Position numbers and translations under genes: made by a program | Shown here: one piece after another, positions 3,493-27,922 of the stretch | Position numbering within the stretch: the stretch's first letter is position 1 | How the letters are laid out: each line of letters opens with the position of its first letter | The notes under the pieces: generated by a model | The model's input: only the letters and a program-made list of their open reading frames with translations | What the model was told of the DNA's origin: nothing | The model's database searches: none | NCBI GenBank assembly: GCA_038065455.1 | Contig: JBBTQX010000006.1 | Coordinates: forward strand, 1-28,019 | Source of the DNA: Patescibacteria group bacterium | GTDB lineage: Bacteria > Patescibacteriota > Minisyncoccia > UBA6257 > GWB1-50-10 | DNA: 28,019 bases | Reading direction: 5' to 3'

Positions 3493-3927
3493 ATGGCCAC
3501 CCGTCACTTAGCGCGAACCATCATTCTCCAATCCCTCTACGAATGGGATTTTTATGAGCATAATGCCGACCTCGCGGCCATCATTGACCGGAATATGAAG
3601 GAGTTCGGTCCTGGCATCGACGAACCGGACTTCGTTTGGCGGATTGCCAAAGGCGTCATCGAGAACATTAAAGAAATCGACGATATCATCAAGCGCGTGG
3701 CGCCTGAGTGGCCTCTGAACCAGATCGCCATCGTAGACCGAAATGTGCTCCGAATAGGCCTCTATGAGCTCCTTCACGCCGATAGGAATGAGGTGCCGCC
3801 AAAGGTAGCCATCAATGAGGCCATCGAAATCGCCAAAAACTACGGCGGTCAAAACTCCCCCAAATTCATTAACGGCGTCCTCGGAACCGTCTTTAGGGAA
3901 TTGGAAGCCAAAGAACCCAAGAAATAA
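3493..3927 (+). CDS. nusB: Transcription antitermination factor NusB
   Basis: RHLAR...[34 protein letters not shown]. Confidence 0.96.
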
Positions 3928-3936
3928 TTGCAAAAT

Positions 3937-3966
3937 AAAATAACCATTAATACTAATGGTTATTTT
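3937..3966 (+). terminator. AT-rich stem-loop after nusB, possible terminator
   Basis: AAAATAACCATTA-atac-TAATGGTTATTTT. Confidence 0.45.
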
Positions 3967-4002
3967 TAAATTCTTTATAGGTCAACTATATCCGTCAATC
4001 CT

Positions 4003-4028
4003 AGGTGCTATCTTTGAAGATAGCACCT
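4003..4028. repeat. Short palindromic REP-like element (GGTGCTATC family), copy 1
   Basis: AGGTGCTATCTT-tg-AAGATAGCACCT. Positions 4004-4028 match 17823-17847 at 21 of 25 positions. Confidence 0.6.
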
Positions 4029-4034
4029 CAAAAC

Positions 4035-4065
4035 AAAAAAGACCGGACATTATCCGGTCTTTTTT
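4035..4065. terminator. Bidirectional rho-independent terminator between nusB and rplK
   Basis: AAAAAAGACCGGA-catta-TCCGGTCTTTTTT, GC stem with A/T tails on both sides, between convergent genes. Confidence 0.85.
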
Positions 4066-4085
4066 TCAAAATATGGGAATTTAAA

Positions 4086-4511
4086 TCAGTCCGTGATTTC
4101 AATTCCCATATTTTTTGCGGTGCCGGCGATGATTTTCATAGCGGCGTCGATGTCGTTCGCGTTCAAATCCGCCATCTTCCGTTCGGCGATTTTTCTTAAG
4201 TCGTCTTTAGTTACTTTGCCCACCACGGTCTTGCCGGGCGTGCCGGAAGCCTTTTCCAACCCCGCGGCTTTTTTGAGGAGTGCGGAGGCCGGCGGAGTCT
4301 TCAATTTGAAATCAAATGTGCGGTCCTCGTAGACGGTGATTTCCGCCGGAATGACGTCACCACCCATATCCTTGGTCGCCTCGTTGAATTGCTGGCAGAA
4401 CTGCTGGATGTTCACGCCGTGCTGACCCAAAGCGGGGCCCACGGGCGGAGCCGGATTCGCCGCGCCGGCCTTCATCTGTAATTTTAATCTTGCTTTTATA
4501 GGTTTTGCCAT
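4086..4511 (-). CDS. rplK: 50S ribosomal protein L11
   Basis: [40 protein letters not shown]. Confidence 0.98.
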
Positions 4512-4518
4512 ATTTTTA

Positions 4519-4646
4519 CCAGGCAGTGAAAATGCGATTGCAAGCTACGCTTGAATCTGCTATTTTATTCGACTCTATTGATTTTTTATTGTATATTTTC
4601 ATATTTTTGGTTTCACCTTAAATTTAATCGCATTTCTACTGCCTGG
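4519..4646. mobile_element. 128-bp MITE-like element (family B) inserted at the nusG stop codon
   Basis: Terminal IRs CCAGGCAGTGAAAATGCGATT / AATCGCATTTCTACTGCCTGG (19 of 21 pairing). TTA direct repeat at 4516-4518 and 4647-4649, the latter being the nusG TAA. Confidence 0.8.
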
Positions 4647-5207
4647 TTACAATTTCTTCACCTGGAGCGAATCGAGCTCCACCATTGTATCCCGGCCGAA
4701 AATCGGAACTAGGACTTTTATCTTCCCATGTTCCTCATCCAACTCGGACACTTTCCCTTCCTGATCCTTAAAAGGACCGTCGGTTATTTTTACCACCTCT
4801 CCCAGCTTCAAGTCAACTTTGAACCTCGGCTCGTTTCCGCCGATTCTCGCCATCAATTCTTCCACCTCGTCTTTCGAAAGCGGAGTCGGAGTAGCACTGT
4901 CGGCGCCCACGAAGCCCGTTACCCGAGGGGTGTTGCGCACCACATACCAGGAATCGTTGTCCAAAACCATATCCACAAGCACGTAGCCCGGATAAATCTT
5001 CTCCTCCGTCTTCAGGCGCTTGCCGTTCTTTATCTTTATCTTGGTTTCCTTCGGCACAATAACATTGAAGATTTTGTCCGTCATCGAAAGCGATTCGACG
5101 CGCTGTTTCAGGTAGCGCGCGACGGCATCCTCGTAGCCGGCGTAGGTATGGATTGCATACCAGTGGCGGCTGATTTCCTTTTGGCTTTTTTCGGATTTGA
5201 TTATCAT
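4647..5207 (-). CDS. nusG: Transcription termination/antitermination protein NusG
   Basis: WYAIHTYAGYE, YPGYVLVDM, VRNTPRVTGFVG, KOW motif VKITDGPF, IFGRDTMVEL. Confidence 0.98.
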   Translation of the reverse strand: MIIKSEKSQKEISRHWYAIHTYAGYEDAVARYLKQRVESLSMTDKIFNVIVPKETKIKIKNGKRLKTEEKIYPGYVLVDMVLDNDSWYVVRNTPRVTGFVGADSATPTPLSKDEVEELMARIGGNEPRFKVDLKLGEVVKITDGPFKDQEGKVSELDEEHGKIKVLVPIFGRDTMVELDSLQVKKL

Positions 5208-5208
5208 T

Positions 5209-5394
5209 TTATAGGATGATTTTTTGGAGGATTTGAATAAAAATATAATCCAAGATACCCAAGAAAGCGGAGATGACCAAAGAAAGCACGATGACGAAAA
5301 TCGTGTAGCGGACCGTTTCCTCGCGTCTCGGCCAATTGACTCTTTTGAGTTCCTGCTTGGATTCCGTCAGGAACAATTTGATTCGTTCAAACAT
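5209..5394 (-). CDS. secE: Preprotein translocase subunit SecE
   Basis: ELKRVNWP motif plus one TM helix, directly upstream of nusG. Confidence 0.93.
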   Translation of the reverse strand: MFERIKLFLTESKQELKRVNWPRREETVRYTIFVIVLSLVISAFLGILDYIFIQILQKIIL

Positions 5395-5447
5395 AAAACA
5401 ATACCCATCTAGGCTTTTCTAGAATTTATCATAGTATGGCTAATTTA

Positions 5448-6029
5448 TCAACCGTTTTCAACTGCCCGGTAAACATTTACGGCGCCCTCCCTGATTACCT
5501 TAACCCGGCCATTTTTGAGCGCGATAAGCGTAGACGGCTTGGATTTGAGCATTCCTTTGTCGAGATAGAAATCCGCCCTGTCACCAAAATACTGCCGGGC
5601 TTCCCGGATATTCTTTGCGGGCGGCTCCCCTTCCCGATTGGCGCTCGGCGCCACAAGTGGTCCGGAAACATTCAAGAATTTCCTAAGAACCCTGTCATCC
5701 GGCAAACGAAAAGCGACACTCTTCCCCCTAACCGGCAAAACCACGCTTACTTTTCCCGGCCAAATTTTTTTCAATATACCCTTGGTTTTTTTGTTCAATT
5801 TCACCCCAAAAATTTTCAAATCGTTCAATTCGGAAATCAGCACGATAAGCTGTTTTTTGGCGCTTCTTTCCTTCAGTTTGTAGATTCGGGCAATCGCCCG
5901 TCGGGAAAAAGCCGAACCGACCAGGCCATAAAGAGTATCGGTTGGAAGAACGCCGATGGCTCCTTTTTTAATTTCCCGAGCCAGCTTCCGGCTGAATTTC
6001 CCGTAATTCCCGCGAATCGGTTTTTTCAT
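5448..6029 (-). CDS. tsaC: L-threonylcarbamoyladenylate synthase (TsaC/Sua5/YrdC family)
   Basis: PTDTLYGL, IYKLKER, WPG, AFRLP, PSAN, PST, IREGAV. Confidence 0.9.
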   Translation of the reverse strand: MKKPIRGNYGKFSRKLAREIKKGAIGVLPTDTLYGLVGSAFSRRAIARIYKLKERSAKKQLIVLISELNDLKIFGVKLNKKTKGILKKIWPGKVSVVLPVRGKSVAFRLPDDRVLRKFLNVSGPLVAPSANREGEPPAKNIREARQYFGDRADFYLDKGMLKSKPSTLIALKNGRVKVIREGAVNVYRAVENG

Positions 6030-6537
6030 TTTTATGGAGCAAAGAATAAACGATTGCCCAGCCGGCCAACGCGACCAAAATGCCGCCCGCGATATCCGTC
6101 GGATAATGGACGCCAGCGAAGATTCTCGCCAAACCGTTCAGGAAAGCCAGCGAAATGAACCAATAGCCCCAGCGCCGATTAAGCGAAAAAATGACGAAGC
6201 CCAAAGCAAATAAAAACGAAGCGTGGCCGGAAGGAAAGGATGTATTGGTCTCGTTCACGAGCGGCTTGAAACCCAAAGCAACGAAAGGTCTGGGGCGGGC
6301 GTAGAAATAAGCGATGGCTCCCGCGATGATTCCCCGAGAGATGAGAACTGTGAGCGCGAGACGGAGAAAAGTTCCAATCTTCGATTTCAGGCCCTTATTT
6401 TTGAAAATGAAAAATACCGCCGCGCCGAAGAGAATATAGGCTAGATATTGGGCGAAAAAAATTATAAGGCCGTCCGAAAAAACGGACCAGCCCGAAACGC
6501 CGTGAATCCAATTGAAAAGATTTATATCCCAGGCCAT
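5968..6537 (-). CDS. PAP2-family phosphatase (undecaprenyl-diphosphatase-like)
   Basis: RPRP, SFPSGH and RIFAGVHYPTD catalytic motifs, several TM segments. Confidence 0.9.
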   Translation of the reverse strand: MAWDINLFNWIHGVSGWSVFSDGLIIFFAQYLAYILFGAAVFFIFKNKGLKSKIGTFLRLALTVLISRGIIAGAIAYFYARPRPFVALGFKPLVNETNTSFPSGHASFLFALGFVIFSLNRRWGYWFISLAFLNGLARIFAGVHYPTDIAGGILVALAGWAIVYSLLHKNEKTDSRELREIQPEAGSGN

Positions 6538-6548
6538 TTGAATTTAAC

Positions 6549-6571
6549 TTAATCGCATTTCTACTGCCTGG
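6549..6571. repeat. Solo terminal repeat of the family B element abutting the rpsR stop codon
   Basis: TTAATCGCATTTCTACTGCCTGG is identical (23 of 23) to 4624-4646 and directly adjacent to the rpsR TAG (6572-6574). Confidence 0.8.
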
Positions 6572-6781
6572 CTAGCGCCTGACGAAAGGCAGAAGACCCA
6601 TCGTTCGGGACTGCTTTATGGCTTTGGCGAGGCGCCGCTGATGCTTGGCGCAGATGCCGGTGTGGCGCGGGTCGATGATTTTTCCCTGACTCGAAACGAA
6701 GCGGCGCAAAAGCTCCACTTCCTGGTAATCTATTTCCTTGGAATTCTGGGAACAAAAAAGGCACTGTTTGGCTGATTTCAT
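6572..6781 (-). CDS. rpsR: 30S ribosomal protein S18
   Basis: CLFC, IDY, LRRFVSSQGKI, TGICAKHQRRLAKAIK, GLLPF; follows rpsF-ssb. Confidence 0.97.
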   Translation of the reverse strand: MKSAKQCLFCSQNSKEIDYQEVELLRRFVSSQGKIIDPRHTGICAKHQRRLAKAIKQSRTMGLLPFVRR

Positions 6782-6904
6782 CCCGTTTAGAGACAGGATG
6801 CGCTTCTTGAGCGCATCCGTGATGCATTAATTGACTCGACTTTATTGGATTTTATTGATTGTTCGGTAATCATATTGTTCATAAGTTTGGTGTCTCTAAC
6901 GGGA
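6781..6904. mobile_element. 124-bp MITE-like element (family A, copy 1) at the rpsR start codon
   Basis: TCCCGTTTAGAGACA...TGTCTCTAACGGGA terminal IRs. TTCA direct repeat at 6777-6780 and 6905-6908. Homologous to 7387-7527 and 11634-11756. Confidence 0.85.
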
Positions 6905-6916
6905 TTCATGTTTGTT

Positions 6917-7387
6917 TTAAAATGGGATTTCTTCCGGCTTAATATCGCTTTCGTCGATATTTATCTCCGGCAATTCTTCTTCCCTCGAATCCTCCGCCTT
7001 GGGTTGGGATGGAGCGCTCGGGCGCTGTTCCCCGCCGAATTGGCCGCCGCTTCCGCCCGAAGATTTGGGACCGAATTGAATATGATCGGCAATAATTTCG
7101 GTTGTGCGCCGCGTCTGGCCCTGCTTATCCTGCCACTCTCTGGTTTGAAGCCGCCCTTCCACCATGGCTAAGCCGCCCTTCTTGAGATATTGGCTGGCGA
7201 TTTCCGCTTGTCGGCCCCAAACCACGATATTGTGGAATTCCGCTTTCTGCTGCTTCTGGCCGGACTTGTCCGTATAAAAACTATTGGTCGCAATGCCGAA
7301 GGAAGAAACCGGTTGGCCGGCCGTCGTCTGCCGGAGTTCCGGATCGCGCGTCAGATTGCCTAAGATGAAAACTTTATTGAGGTTCAT
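6917..7387 (-). CDS. ssb: Single-stranded DNA-binding protein
   Basis: NKVFILGNLTRDPELR, VEGRLQTREW, acidic C-terminus EEIPF. Confidence 0.98.
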   Translation of the reverse strand: MNLNKVFILGNLTRDPELRQTTAGQPVSSFGIATNSFYTDKSGQKQQKAEFHNIVVWGRQAEIASQYLKKGGLAMVEGRLQTREWQDKQGQTRRTTEIIADHIQFGPKSSGGSGGQFGGEQRPSAPSQPKAEDSREEELPEINIDESDIKPEEIPF

Positions 7388-7527
7388 CCCGTTAGAGGCA
7401 GGATACGCTCCTGCCTGCGCAGGCAGGCAAAAAGCGCATCCGTGATAGATTAATTGATTCGACTTTATCGGATTTCATTGATTGTTTGATGAATATATTT
7501 TTCATAATGTTTATGCCTCTAACGGGA
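7387..7527. mobile_element. 141-bp MITE-like element (family A, copy 2) at the ssb start codon, with a nested 18-bp palindrome
   Basis: TCCCGTTAGAGGCA...TGCCTCTAACGGGA IRs. TTCA direct repeat at 7383-7386 and 7528-7531. Confidence 0.85.
7410..7427. repeat. Perfect 18-bp palindrome CCTGCCTGCGCAGGCAGG nested in family A copy 2
   Basis: Absent from copies 1 and 3; accounts exactly for the 141 vs 123 bp length difference. Confidence 0.85.
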
Positions 7528-7535
7528 TTCATTTT

Positions 7536-7952
7536 TTATTGTAATATCTCTTCTATTTTCTTCTCTAAAGCTTCATTCGTCAAAGTTTTCTCCGCGGGCT
7601 TTCCGGCCGAGCTTCGAAAACTCAGGAAGGAACGGGGACGGCCTTCTTCCCTGACCTCATTTTCCGGCCTGGGCTTTTTCGCCCGGCGGAAGAAATAACG
7701 GAGCAAACTTCCCTCAAGATCGAGGTCGGTCCTCAAACCGGCGGTAGCGGAAGGTTCCATGGAAAATACCAAATGGCTGAAAAAACCATAGTTTTCTTTT
7801 TTAATGGGATAGGCAATGTGGATTTTCTCGATTGCTTTTTCCTTCGCGACTTCTCCTCCGTGCTTTGAGACGAGTTTCTTGACCGCAACGACGTTTTCGT
7901 CCTTGGTCAAAAAAGCGACTTCGTAATTTTCCGTCTTTTTATCCGGTTCCAT
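7536..7952 (-). CDS. rpsF: 30S ribosomal protein S6
   Basis: NYEVAFL, IAYPIKK, LLRYF; canonical rpsF-ssb-rpsR order. Confidence 0.88.
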   Translation of the reverse strand: MEPDKKTENYEVAFLTKDENVVAVKKLVSKHGGEVAKEKAIEKIHIAYPIKKENYGFFSHLVFSMEPSATAGLRTDLDLEGSLLRYFFRRAKKPRPENEVREEGRPRSFLSFRSSAGKPAEKTLTNEALEKKIEEILQ

Positions 7953-11634: not shown

Positions 11635-11756
11635 CCCGTTAGAGACAGGATGCGCTCAAAAAGCGCATCCGTGATGGATTAGTTAACTCGACTTTATTGG
11701 ATTTCATTGATTGTTTGGTAATCATATTTTTCATAAGGCTTATGTCTCTAACGGGA
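11634..11756. mobile_element. 123-bp MITE-like element (family A, copy 3) at the rpoC start codon
   Basis: TCCCGTTAGAGACA...TGTCTCTAACGGGA IRs. TTCA direct repeat at 11630-11633 and 11757-11760. Confidence 0.85.
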
Positions 11757-11757
11757 T

Positions 11758-14700
11758 TCATTCTTCCTTTTCTTCATTATCCTCCCGACTGTCTTCATAT
11801 TCGTAATTCACATTCAAACCCAAGGATTTCAATTCGGAGACCAATACATTGAAGGACGCGGGGATGTTCGGCTTCTTGATTTCCTGTCCGCGGATAATCG
11901 ATTCGAAAGCCGCTGAGCGTCCGAGCACATCATCCGATTTTATCGTGAGCATCTCCTGGAGCGTGTGCGCCGCGCCGTAGCCCTCGAGAGCCCACACTTC
12001 CATCTCGCCGAAGCGTTGGCCGCCCAATTGGGCTTTGCCGCCCAAGGGCTGCTGGGTAATGAGCGAGTAGGGTCCGGTCGAGCGGACGTGCATCTTGTCC
12101 TCCACCAAATGGTTCAGTTTCATTATGTACATATAACCGACGGTCACCGGCTCTTTAAATGCCAACCCATCCTGGCCGTTCCAAACCGTCATCTTGCCGG
12201 TCTCGGAAAATCCCGCGGCTTTGAGTTCGTTCCGGATGTCTTCCTCGCTCGGGCCCACGAAATTCGGCACCACGGCCCGATAGCCGAGTTTGTTGGCCGC
12301 GAGGCCCAAATGGGTTTCCAATATCTGGCCCAGATTCATACGGCTTGCGACACCCAGCGGATTCAAAACTATGTCCACCGGCGTGCCGTCTTCGAGATAC
12401 GGCATGCTCTCCATTTTGCGAATCTGGGAAATGACGCCTTTGTTGCCGTAGCGGCCGGCCAGCTTATCGCCCGCCCGTATCTTGCGCAACTGAGCCACCT
12501 CAATTTGAATTTTTGTAATAATACCCGGCTCGAGCTTATCGCCCTTATCGCGCGAGAATATCTTGATGCCGATGATGCGGCCCTGCTTGCCGTGGGGCAT
12601 CGTGAGCGAGGAATCTTTCACATCGCGGGCCTTCTCGCCGAAAATAGCGCGAAGTAATCTTTCTTCGGAGGTCAGTTCCGATTCGCCTTTGGGCGAAATC
12701 TTTCCGACCAGAATATCGTTGGCCCGCACTTCGGCGCCAATGCGAACAATGCCGTCCGCGTCCAAGTTCCTCAGTTTTTCTTCGGCCACGTTCGGAATAT
12801 CGGGCGTCATCATCTCCGGTCCGAGTTTGGTATCGCGCACCAGGCAAGTGAAAGTTTCGATGTAAATGGAGGTGAAGAAATCATCCCGCGCCACCCGTTC
12901 GGAAATAACGATGGCATCCTCGAAGTTGCCGCCCTGCCAGGGCAGGAAGGCCACGAGCAAGTTCCGACCCAAGGCCAGAACGCCGTCCTTGGTCGCGGGG
13001 CCGTCGGCCAGGACCGTGCCCGGCTTCACTTTGTCTCCCACCGAAACGGCCGGCCGTTGAGTCATGCAGGTGGACTGGTTGGAACGCTTGAATTTGTAGA
13101 GATTGAAAGTTTTATTGCCGTCGGAAGTTTTCACGGTGACGGCGCGTCCGTCCGCTTCCGTCACGATGCCGCTCACGTCCGAGATAATCACCTGGCCGGA
13201 ATCCTGGGCGGCTTTTTCCTCCTCGCCGGTCGATACCAGCGGCGCTTCGGGATTCAAAGTCGGCGTGGCTTGCCTCTGCATGTTCGAACCCATCAAGACG
13301 CGGTTCGCATCGTTGTGCTCCAAAAACGGAATAAGCGACGTGGAAACGCTGAAGAGCTGGTTCGGAGAAATGTCGATGAGATCGACTTCTTCGCGCCGGC
13401 AGATGCCCGGCACGCCTTTGTTCCTCGCCGAAATAATCGGTTCGGCGATAAATCCTTTTTCGTCGGTCTTCACATCCGCCTGGGCGATGTTGTATTTCTG
13501 CTCGTTAATCGCGTCGAGCCAAATCGTGTCTTTGGTGACCGTACCATTCTTGATTTTGAAATAAGGCGTTTCCAAAAAACCGAAATCGTTCACGCGAGTG
13601 TAGTTCGCCAAATAGTTCACGAGGCCGATGTTCGTGCCTTCGGGAGTGGCAATCGGACAAATACGCCCATAATAGGACGGATGCACGTCGCGGACTTCGA
13701 AACCCGCGCGCTCGCGCGTGAGACCGCCCGGGCCCATCGCCGATATTCTGCGTTTATGTTCGAGTTCGGCAAGCGGATTAACCTGGTCCATAAATTGCGA
13801 AAGCTGGGAAGCGGCGAAAAAGTCACGCACGACTGAGGTTAAAAGTTTGTAGTTGATGAGCTGGGCCGGCTGAAGTGTTTTCCTTTCCAAAGTGGACATT
13901 CTATCTTGGATGCCGCGCTTCAGGCGGGCGAAACCTACCCGCAAACGGGCCTGAACCAACTCGCCTACGGAACGAATCCTGCGATTGCCCAAATGGTCGA
14001 TATCATCCGGTTCGGCGTTCAGATTATTGTTCAGGCGAATCATCTCCGAAATAGCGGCGATAAGGTCTTCCAAATCCAGGAGCCGGCTGTCTTTCTTTCC
14101 AAGCTCCAGACGCTGATTGAATTTATAGCGGCCAACCGGGCTTATATCATAGCGGTCAAAGCGCGAAAACATCGGCTCAACCAGAAGCCGAGCGTTCTCG
14201 ACAGTCGCGAGATCTCCCGGCCGGAGGCGGCGATAAAGTTCAACAAAGGATTCGTCCGCATTCTTCGCATCATCCTTTTTGAGGGTTGCTTGGATGTACT
14301 TTATGGCGCCGGTATCCACCTTGGCGAAGGCCTTCAAAATCTCGTCGTTATCCTTCAGCCCGAAAACGCGGAGCAGCTGGGTGACGGGCGCTTTGCGGCG
14401 GCGGTCGATTTTCACGCCCAGAAATCCGTCAGCTTCGGTATCCAACTCCACCCAAGCGCCGCGATTCGGAATTATTTTCCCGCCAAAAAGCTTCCGGCCG
14501 CGGAACATATTGGCCGTGAAATAAATTCCCGGCGAACGGATAATCTGCGAGATCACCACCCGTTCCACGCCGTTCACGATGAAAGTGCCCCGCGCGGTCA
14601 TCAGCGGGAAATCACCGAGATAAACTTCCTGAACTTTGGATTGCTTGGTTTCCCGGCTTACCAGTTTCACGTTCACTCGAAGCGGCGCCTCGAACGTCTG

Positions 14701-25056: not shown

Positions 25057-25077
25057 ACACTGAGCTTGTCGAAGTGT
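25057..25077. repeat. REP-like palindromic unit ACACTGAGCTTGTCGAAGTGT
   Basis: ACACT...AGTGT arms around GAGCTTGTCGA. Resembles the CTTCGACAAGCTCAG REP-like motif as I recall it; single copy in this window. Confidence 0.45.
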
Positions 25078-25226
25078 GCCCTTTGTTTGAAAATGCGCGA
25101 ACCTATTTTGAACGGAACTGACCGCCTCCGCTTCGCTCCGGCGGAACGCTCGGGTGCGGCGGAATTCCCCCCACACCCCCCTTCCGCCGCCCCCTCGCTC
25201 CCACAGCGAAAAATTTTTGCGGGCTT
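25076..25226 (+). repeat. 151-bp GC-rich inverted repeat, left copy
   Basis: Reverse complement of 27772-27922; no mismatch seen by eye, and the ORF track gives the same peptide from both copies. Confidence 0.95.
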
Positions 25227-27771: not shown

Positions 27772-27922
27772 AAGCCCGCAAAAATTTTTCGCTGTGGGAG
27801 CGAGGGGGCGGCGGAAGGGGGGTGTGGGGGGAATTCCGCCGCACCCGAGCGTTCCGCCGGAGCGAAGCGGAGGCGGTCAGTTCCGTTCAAAATAGGTTCG
27901 CGCATTTTCAAACAAAGGGCAC
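27772..27922 (-). repeat. 151-bp GC-rich inverted repeat, right copy
   Basis: Reverse complement of 25076-25226; embedded in a longer hairpin-rich non-coding region running to the window end. Confidence 0.95.

Follow-up and report, generated by a model that had tools for sequence, protein, structure and literature searches.

The stretch of DNA analysed here, hereafter the window, covers 28,019 nucleotides of a Patescibacteria group bacterium (contig JBBTQX010000006.1, positions 1 to 28,019) and carries, between the minus-strand genes nusG and rplK, a short mobile element of 128 bp that was read from the sequence as a non-autonomous miniature inverted-repeat transposable element (MITE). The two flanking genes are supported by Pfam, which gave NusG and KOW matches on 4650-5207 (1.7e-26) and a ribosomal protein L11 match on 4089-4511 (about 1e-28). 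In the direction of the genes, the element runs from its GTAGAAA-type end to its GTGAAAA-type end; the two 21-bp terminal repeats are complementary at 19 of 21 positions and enclose an A/T-rich interior of 86 nt. The TAA that forms the nusG stop codon is present on both sides of the element, and its second copy closes a small open reading frame (mini-ORF) and is separated from the rplK ATG (4509-4511) by the 4 nt AAAT (4512-4515). The coordinates of all these features are collected in Table 1.

The 128-bp element with its 21-bp inverted ends and the duplicated nusG TAA, the mini-ORF at 4602-4516 that follows AAGGTGA and stops 4 nt before the rplK ATG, and the inner hairpin CAAGC-TAC-GCTTG at 4541-4553, all of which had been described in the original prediction, are present as read. 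Other copies of the family harbor a hairpin at the equivalent position with a different sequence. The mini-ORF has no match in Pfam. The RNA of 4490-4670 (181 nt) is predicted to fold with -43.8 kcal/mol (z = -4.9), a stability reached by none of 200 shuffled sequences, and in the predicted fold both repeats pair as a stem with one mismatch. An Rfam scan of 3900-7600 with E up to 1 gave no match on 4516-4649 and only weak ones around 3929-4118.

Table 1. Features at the nusG-rplK junction and a related remnant in the window.
Feature	Position	Strand	Basis and remarks
Mobile element, 128 bp, non-autonomous, MITE	4519-4646	-	read from sequence; missing at the orthologous site of G001-G004
Terminal inverted repeat adjoining rplK	4519-4539	plus-strand CCAGGCAGTGAAAATGCGATT	minus strand encodes NRIFTAW, the final 7 residues of the mini-ORF
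Terminal inverted repeat adjoining nusG	4626-4646	minus-strand CCAGGCAGTAGAAATGCGATT	sequence and repeat search
Target-site duplication, copy 1 (TAA, nusG stop)	4647-4649	-	sequence, ORF list, empty sites
Target-site duplication, copy 2 (TAA, mini-ORF stop)	4516-4518	-	sequence, ORF list, empty sites
Mini-ORF, 28 codons and stop	4516-4602	-	ORF list; homologous ORFs in other copies
Shine-Dalgarno-like AAGGTGA, 10 nt 5' of the mini-ORF ATG	4613-4619	-	sequence
Subterminal hairpin CAAGC-TAC-GCTTG adjoining the GTGAAAA-type repeat	4541-4553		sequence
nusG (context)	4647-5207	-	ORF list and Pfam
rplK, ribosomal protein L11 (context)	4086-4511	-	ORF list and Pfam
Family remnant, 34 nt (GTAGAAA-type repeat and 13 nt)	6538-6571	-	between the rpsR stop TAG and the PAP2 gene ATG

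Insertion at the junction and the repeat family

The junction was compared in four genomes of the same genus (G001-G004), where G000 denotes the 654-kb genome of the window and C-numbers denote contigs. Empty nusG-rplK sites with a single TAA were found in G004 (…AAATTATAAAAATATATGGC), whose nusG is 93% identical, in G001 (…TTATAAAAACATGGC) and in G003 (…TTATAAGAAACAATGGC), the general form of the empty site in the congeners being …TAAAAAT(AT)ATG…; G002 also lacks the element and has an unrelated spacer of 33 nt. The occupied site of the window genome reads …TTGTAA, then the 128 bp, then TAAAAATATGGC, and deleting the 128 bp together with one TAA recreates the empty state of the congeners. The element is also absent from this junction in one other genus. 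The element entered the nusG-rplK junction after the split from the four sampled congeners and duplicated the TAA of the nusG stop, and the proposal of a mobile-element insertion with a real TAA duplication is thereby borne out by the empty sites of all four congeners.

In three public runs, contigs of a relative with about 87-90% identity join position 4517 to 4647 and skip 129 nt; as these contigs differ from the window by about 11-13%, they represent the empty site of that relative and not a polymorphism in the present population. A contig of 158 nt from an RNA library spans 4538-4695 with 1 mismatch, and it was not counted as proof of transcription because DNA carry-over is possible.

The repeat pattern, searched with up to 3 mismatches, gave 42 matches in the 654-kb genome and 1 match for the reversed control, indicating a repeat family and not a chance occurrence. 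Eighteen paired elements of 61-312 bp were observed in this genome, together with four further clear pairs, one or two beside an N gap, a copy truncated at the end of a contig and two unpaired ends, so that the paired copies total 22-24 and the membership of a multi-copy family suggested earlier is upheld. Among 40 relatives the distribution is patchy, with 0, 0, 1 and 1 matches in the congeners and 8, 3, 3 and 2 in four other genera, and the copies in relatives G008, G021, G022 and G027 contain other interiors without a homologous mini-ORF. An external scan with one genome per species exposed at least 113 stretches and, among the matches listed, 50 pairs, a scope that applies to every external count given below. 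The stretches among the matches listed belong mostly to metagenome-assembled genomes of Patescibacteria (Saccharibacteria, Paceibacteria, Harrison-, Lipton-, Jorgensen-, Komeili- and Doudnabacteria), and the family is widespread in Patescibacteria. The 50 external pairs fall into size classes of 60-75 bp (15 pairs) and 123-151 bp (33 pairs), with single members of 319 bp and 327 bp. One GTAGAAA and one GTGAAAA end were found in 49 of the 50 external pairs and in 18/18 pairs of the window genome, and this constant asymmetry means that the stem always bears the same mismatch; the single A·C mismatch is retained in essentially every copy. The subfamily to which the window copy belongs has ATGCGAT-type ends and a common interior. 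At G000:C7:40052-40267, two family copies of about 61 bp flank an N run, and the repeat there coincides with a scaffold gap.

The longest copies (312, 319 and 327 bp) contain a lone ORF between the same kind of 21-bp ends, with its start a few bases in from the GTGAAAA end and its stop at the GTAGAAA end (C2:77644-77955, L057 and L078). In the 327- and 319-bp copies (L078 and L057) this ORF encodes proteins of 91 amino acids that fill the space between the repeats and match the GIY-YIG domain (PF01541) at 4.6e-17 and 1.8e-14, the nearest PDB chains being UPF0213 proteins and SLX1 with weak scores (E about 2e-3); in the 312-bp copy (G000:C2:77644-77955) the GIY-YIG gene is frameshifted at an A-run. 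The 50-nt start of a second GIY-YIG copy, identical to the first, lies at the end of contig C3 (C3:88616-88665), and since the contig end cuts this copy, the repeat probably broke the assembly. Four more GIY-YIG genes detected by tblastn (C2:35648, C8:28408, C8:92145 and C7:26564) lie outside the repeats of the family. Neither a transposase-sized ORF nor a DDE transposase was found in the 22-24 pairs here or in the 50 external pairs among the matches listed, and the maximum paired length across the two sets is 327 bp. As no transposase-sized gene is present and the longest copies carry GIY-YIG, the short copies are read as non-autonomous derivatives of a GIY-YIG element. A separate observation concerns L064:3735-3809, a 75-bp copy of the ATGCGAT type; the ATG of a GIY-YIG gene follows it after 10 nt, and no second repeat pair surrounds this gene.

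It is likely that 4519-4646 is a gene-less, MITE-type copy of a tiny inverted-repeat family of Patescibacteria whose full-length members measure 312-327 bp and carry a GIY-YIG gene of about 91 residues. The GIY-YIG nuclease is the candidate mobiliser of the elements: that of the full-length members would mobilise the short copies in trans, probably recognising the ends when folded as a hairpin, and would make cuts staggered by 3-4 nt in junction DNA that is A/T-rich and melts easily. The operon mRNA would carry the element as a strong hairpin, and the mini-ORF would be an inherited passenger that may help ribosomes to open the hairpin and to re-initiate on rplK, although the insertion would be tolerated without such help.

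Several points weigh against this interpretation. The frameshift in the only complete GIY-YIG copy of the family in this genome leaves present-day activity here unproven; the ends of the 312-, 319- and 327-bp members are of the ATTCGA type, as opposed to the ATGCGAT type of the window copy, and a dedicated search for a full-length element with ATGCGAT-type ends found none, its only yield being the 75-bp copy at L064. An empty allele at 99% identity or more was not seen in the contigs of the read runs, so that polymorphism within the population is not shown. For the insertion preferences described below, the position statistics come from a crude longest-ORF gene caller with hand curation of 29 sites, copies that share descent are not independent, and, as 92% of the genome is coding, purifying selection must help to determine at which sites copies persist.

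The mini-ORF, the insertion sites and alternative explanations

An ATG at the homologous column is present in 15 aligned copies, nine of which are open and in frame with TGG-TAA (27-28 codons), and in the other six a frameshift leads to a stop about 40 nt too soon; two of these six represent one site in two strains, and the frameshifted copies include those before rpmI (twice) and another operon gene. The short copies of 60-80 bp contain no ORF. The notion that the ORF always ends at the duplicated stop is thus not supported, and the observation that the mini-ORF stop keeps the original stop-to-ATG spacing agrees with the empty site by geometry. The repeat that faces the upstream gene has stops in the reading frames, and the downstream-facing repeat is open in all three frames; since the latter ends in TGG, insertion at TAA gives TGG-TAA, and an ORF inherited from the founder ends at the old stop. 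Differences among the nine intact ORFs by codon position amount to 196/239/216, without a third-position excess, and the codon differences comprise 57 synonymous versus 376 non-synonymous ones, indicating that the peptide itself is not under selection. The persistence of frameshifted copies before rpmI and other genes further indicates that the mini-ORF is not required.

An alternative, which we regard as rather unlikely, is that the mini-ORF acts as a selected relay, in which ribosomes initiate on it within the element, melt the hairpin arm encoded by it and terminate on the duplicated TAA at the original spacing, so that the coupling to rplK is restored and the insertion becomes harmless. 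The geometry suits such a relay, as the mini-ORF stops 4 nt before the rplK ATG like the stop of the empty site, the 21-bp stem ends 7 nt before this ATG with its 3' arm inside the mini-ORF, the post-insertion spacers of 2-7 nt lack a Shine-Dalgarno motif, and the genes that follow (L11, S4, S8, L24, L35, TopA and GAPDH) are essential or highly expressed ones. ORFs of 27-28 codons were also kept in 9/15 copies with the homologous ATG despite heavy divergence (binomial versus 1/3, p = 0.03, a value that ignores shared descent), and 15 of the 29 long copies considered below possess an ATG-initiated ORF of at least 16 codons ending on the flanking TAA, some of these ORFs being unrelated to the mini-ORF. 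Against the relay stand the six frameshifted copies that persist, the flat pattern of codon differences, and the Shine-Dalgarno-like motif, which among the aligned copies occurs in the window copy only. The main branch of the family also argues against it. The ORF that starts there from a duplicated ATG (MPGSENSI…) was scored in 21 copies longer than 100 bp and stops 26-125 nt short of the host ATG in 19 of them and 133 and 44 nt short of it in the remaining two; among the short copies scored, this ORF stops 26-125 nt short of the host ATG in 2/6 and overruns it in 4/6. Translational coupling via the mini-ORF is possible but unproven. A more far-reaching proposal describes a new class of prokaryotic transposon, in which a GIY-YIG nuclease of about 90 residues would act on hairpin ends and home to stop-start junctions, with one subfamily being "polarity-proof" (its upstream end gives stops and a relay mini-ORF follows) and hence tolerated in ribosomal-protein operons of a 650-kb genome; taken as a whole, this proposal is unlikely.

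The insertion sites of the subfamily were compiled for 29 long copies, 13 in the window genome and 16 at new sites on metagenome contigs; two strain variants of sites already counted and four 68-80-bp copies were left out. The usual duplication in this ATGCGAT-type subfamily is TAA. A real upstream gene has its in-frame stop duplicated in 7/13 copies here and 6/16 in the metagenomes (13/29), one of the metagenome stops being a TGA in overlap with the start that follows; the duplicated sequence is (T)ATG in three copies, and in 5 further copies of the 16 from metagenomes the upstream gene runs 8-28 nt into the repeat and stops there. In the window genome, TAA is the upstream stop at NusG-L11, where the congeners are empty; at S11-S4; and at IF3-L35 (the L35 Pfam match being below the cut-off), S14-S8 (with an extra G at the junction), L14-L24 and the junction of an unnamed ORF with RmuC, each of these four being confirmed by an empty site. 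The site between MraY and an unnamed gene has TAG on one side and TAA on the other; at DprA-TopA the TAA lies out of frame within the last codons, and DprA now ends as TRQ* in the repeat versus KQ* in G001 and G003; before GAPDH the stop is 15 nt away; the copies upstream of signal peptidase I (lepB) and of S20 have no co-directional upstream gene; at efp the duplication is TATG, comprising the start codon and confirmed by an empty site; and one further long copy is near no start codon.

An ORF of at least 40 codons starts within 10 nt of the end of the element in 12/13 long copies here and in 13/16 from metagenomes (25/29), and the host gene start faces the GTGAAAA end, so that the orientation relative to the downstream gene is constant in the subfamily. 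Duplications of TATA and TTTA were likewise confirmed by empty sites; the empty sites for C10:13533, C2:77644 and C2:84152 are ambiguous, as they differ from G004 beyond the element itself, and C8:18824 lacks a clean duplication (TCA versus TAA). Of the 50 external pairs, 33 show an exact duplication of 4 bp, 5 one of 3 bp and 3 one of 5 bp, and in the other 9 it is absent or 1 bp; CATA, which is TATG on the other strand, is the exact duplication in 15/50, and 25/50 abut CAT. By a crude null, stop codons make up 11% of the available TAA/TTA sites, 16% of these sites are followed by a start within 13 nt, and 16% of the same-strand TAAs at this distance from a start are stops; compared with these crude expectations, the counts of 7, 12 and 7 among the 13 long copies of the window genome give p about 2e-4, 4e-9 and 1e-3, respectively.

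The statement that the family targets the stop codon therefore stands in part: 13/29 long copies duplicate an upstream stop, above the crude null of 11-16%, but the DprA-TopA duplication is out of frame, the lepB and S20 copies lack a co-directional upstream gene, and the wider family duplicates mostly CATA (TATG). Copies unrelated to stops, or without an ORF, were found, and these are what the original prediction had named as its refutation, so that its strict form is given up. We read the preference as one for A/T-rich 3-4 nt directly ahead of start codons, which in packed operons is the preceding stop codon, and an additional preference for stop-start junctions is possible.

It is improbable that insertion is untargeted, that is, near-random in A/T-rich DNA, with the junction bias reflecting the survivors in a genome with hardly any spare DNA. 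Called ORFs cover about 92% of this genome and the median spacer is 31 nt, the insertion flanks are 75% A+T versus 53.5% for the genome, and the duplications vary in length (3-5 bp) and sequence, all of which speak for untargeted insertion. However, a start follows within 13 nt at only 12-16% of the available positions or TAA sites, compared with 25 of the 29 long copies, and start-adjacent sites are expected to be among the most harmful and not the most tolerated. The recurrence of CATA and of CAT-abutting ends in the external pairs and the constant orientation within the subfamily also speak against it.

A MITE derived from a DDE transposon of the IS5 or PIF-Harbinger type, the origin to which the 3-bp duplication had been related, is highly improbable. 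The 3-bp TAA/TTA duplication of the window copy and of most long subfamily copies is in its favour, and it is countered by the absence of any pair above 327 bp or with a transposase-sized ORF (22-24 pairs here and 50 external ones among the matches listed), by the longest copies, which encode a GIY-YIG nuclease and not a DDE transposase, and by the 4-bp duplications in 33/50 external pairs. A vertically inherited rplK leader or attenuator, for which the position directly upstream of rplK and the strong fold might speak, is refuted by the empty sites, since the element is absent from the junction in 4/4 congeners and in one other genus, gives no Rfam match with E up to 1 in 4516-4649, and precedes unrelated genes with the same sequence.

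Loss, scars and altered gene ends

G004 retains about 10 nt of the GTAGAAA end at two junctions where the window genome has a full copy, namely S11-S4 (…TTTAA CCAGGCAATA AAAAACATG) and DprA-TopA (…TTAA CCAGACAGTA AAATAATAATG), both of which are clean in G001 and G003. A third scar in G004, at a stop-start junction that is clean in the window genome, reads TAAG CCAGGTAGTA AAAATG versus TAActtATG, and a fourth, at the rpsR/PAP2 gene junction, reads TAG CCAGGCAT ATG, where G003 has TAACGGCATG. These scars of 7-10 nt lie at G004:C35:5405-5417, G004:C9:1956-1968, G004:C29:13428-13440 and the G004 locus L031 near 3340. The scar pattern has 5 matches in G004, of which one is no scar but the mutated end of a shared 68-bp copy, and G001-G003 have 1, 1 and 0 matches, with reversed controls of 0, 0, 0 and 1. 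From the sequences we infer that the scars would arise by deletion between the GTAGAAA of the repeat and a GTAAAAA at the far junction. The scars indicate that junction copies are gained and lost and that their fragments become gene ends. Upstream genes that enter the repeat use its TAG (G000:C5:6638-6648, L310, L314, L321 and L335), and the change of the DprA C-terminus from KQ* to TRQ* is retained in G004 after the loss of the element.

Other repeats were also observed. Elements designated family A lie in the window at 6787-6918, 7410-7541 and 11639-11770 and elsewhere at G000:C2:40672-40805; their ORF (40-46 codons, MNPVRD…SCL) uses a duplicated host ATG as its start, has its stop codon inside the far repeat at 5 nt from the real ATG, and is intact in 4/4 copies inspected. 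A likeness of interiors to family A, seen by eye, is not supported by a search, as an nhmmer profile built from the internal module of 7 copies recovered only those 7 genome-wide. At S11-S4 a copy of family A and a copy of the family studied here (family B) stand side by side, and both are missing in G004. In another organism (L315/L337) a family B copy precedes, by 7 nt, a gene whose product begins MNLNKA…, and the window gene 6917-7387, with the same MNLNKA… start, has a family A copy at its ATG. A perfect inverted repeat of 151 nt is formed by 25076-25226 and 27772-27922, with 2545 nt between the arms.

Implications and comparison with known systems

If the GIY-YIG protein were the mobilising enzyme, the full-length members would constitute an autonomous bacterial transposon type of about 320 bp, and we know of no smaller one; to our knowledge, GIY-YIG transposition chemistry is also absent from the insertion-sequence families. 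Such a role would further suggest a selfish-element origin for the Ssn-type nucleases discussed below. The junction preference would explain how repeats spread in the ultra-compact genomes of the candidate phyla radiation (CPR), ribosomal-protein operons included, without polar effects, and the element offers a concrete system for asking how the translation of tightly coupled genes survives a hairpin of 130 nt. For annotation, the copies and their scars of 7-34 nt change gene ends, as in DprA, and are not to be taken for leaders or riboswitches.

Among published systems, the closest one found is that of the Ssn nucleases (Chenal et al. 2025, PMC11893778), small GIY-YIG enzymes that act on single strands and are each encoded between copies of their own hairpin repeat (NTS/SRM). 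The NTS repeat has many gene-less copies genome-wide that cluster around genes, and the authors remark that the NTS-ssnA-NTS arrangement resembles an insertion sequence (PMC11893778, where the IS200/IS605 and REP/RAYT systems are cited too); the terms "duplication" and "MITE" do not occur in the portion of PMC11893778 that was searched. The likeness consists in a small single-domain GIY-YIG protein (91 amino acids here, PF01541) with its gene flanked on both sides by a genome-wide repeat. The present elements differ in their ends, which are 21-bp terminal inverted repeats with a retained mismatch as opposed to the NTS hairpin of about 30 nt, and they add target duplications, empty sites, size classes, a junction preference and scars. 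The NTS-type motif ATTCCC-N8-GGGAAT occurs 0 times in the window genome.

The Correia or NEMIS elements of Neisseria are intergenic repeats of about 100-150 bp with terminal inverted repeats and short A/T duplications (TA in the Correia elements), which are present in many copies, are transcribed together with neighbouring genes and form hairpins in mRNA, and no autonomous partner of theirs is known to us. The present elements resemble them as intergenic, multi-copy bacterial MITEs of about 100-150 bp with terminal inverted repeats and short A/T duplications that would be carried on mRNAs as hairpins, but differ in having a GIY-YIG partner candidate, sites in the last bases before start codons, and, in one subfamily, a short ORF terminating on the duplication. 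IS5-group and Harbinger elements make 3-bp TAA/TTA duplications, a feature that Tourist-type MITEs and the IS5/PIF-Harbinger elements share with the subfamily of the window; in contrast, no member here contains a DDE transposase, and the rest of the family shows mostly 4-bp duplications (33/50 external pairs among the matches listed). The IS200/IS605 and REP/RAYT systems rely on HUH-Y1 enzymes and are not known to make a target duplication. These systems and the present family have in common ends that form hairpins, a nuclease-type enzyme of very small size, a bias in strand or orientation and numerous hairpin copies without a gene; the present family differs from them by its 3-5-bp duplications and its GIY-YIG enzyme candidate. 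A literature search, in which supplements and subscription journals were outside the scope, returned no bacterial GIY-YIG element with inverted ends and target duplications, no MITE with a coupling ORF and no MITEs in CPR. New in the present analysis are the TAA/stop-junction subfamily and the way it is oriented, the mini-ORF test, the metagenome copies as independent examples, and the scars.

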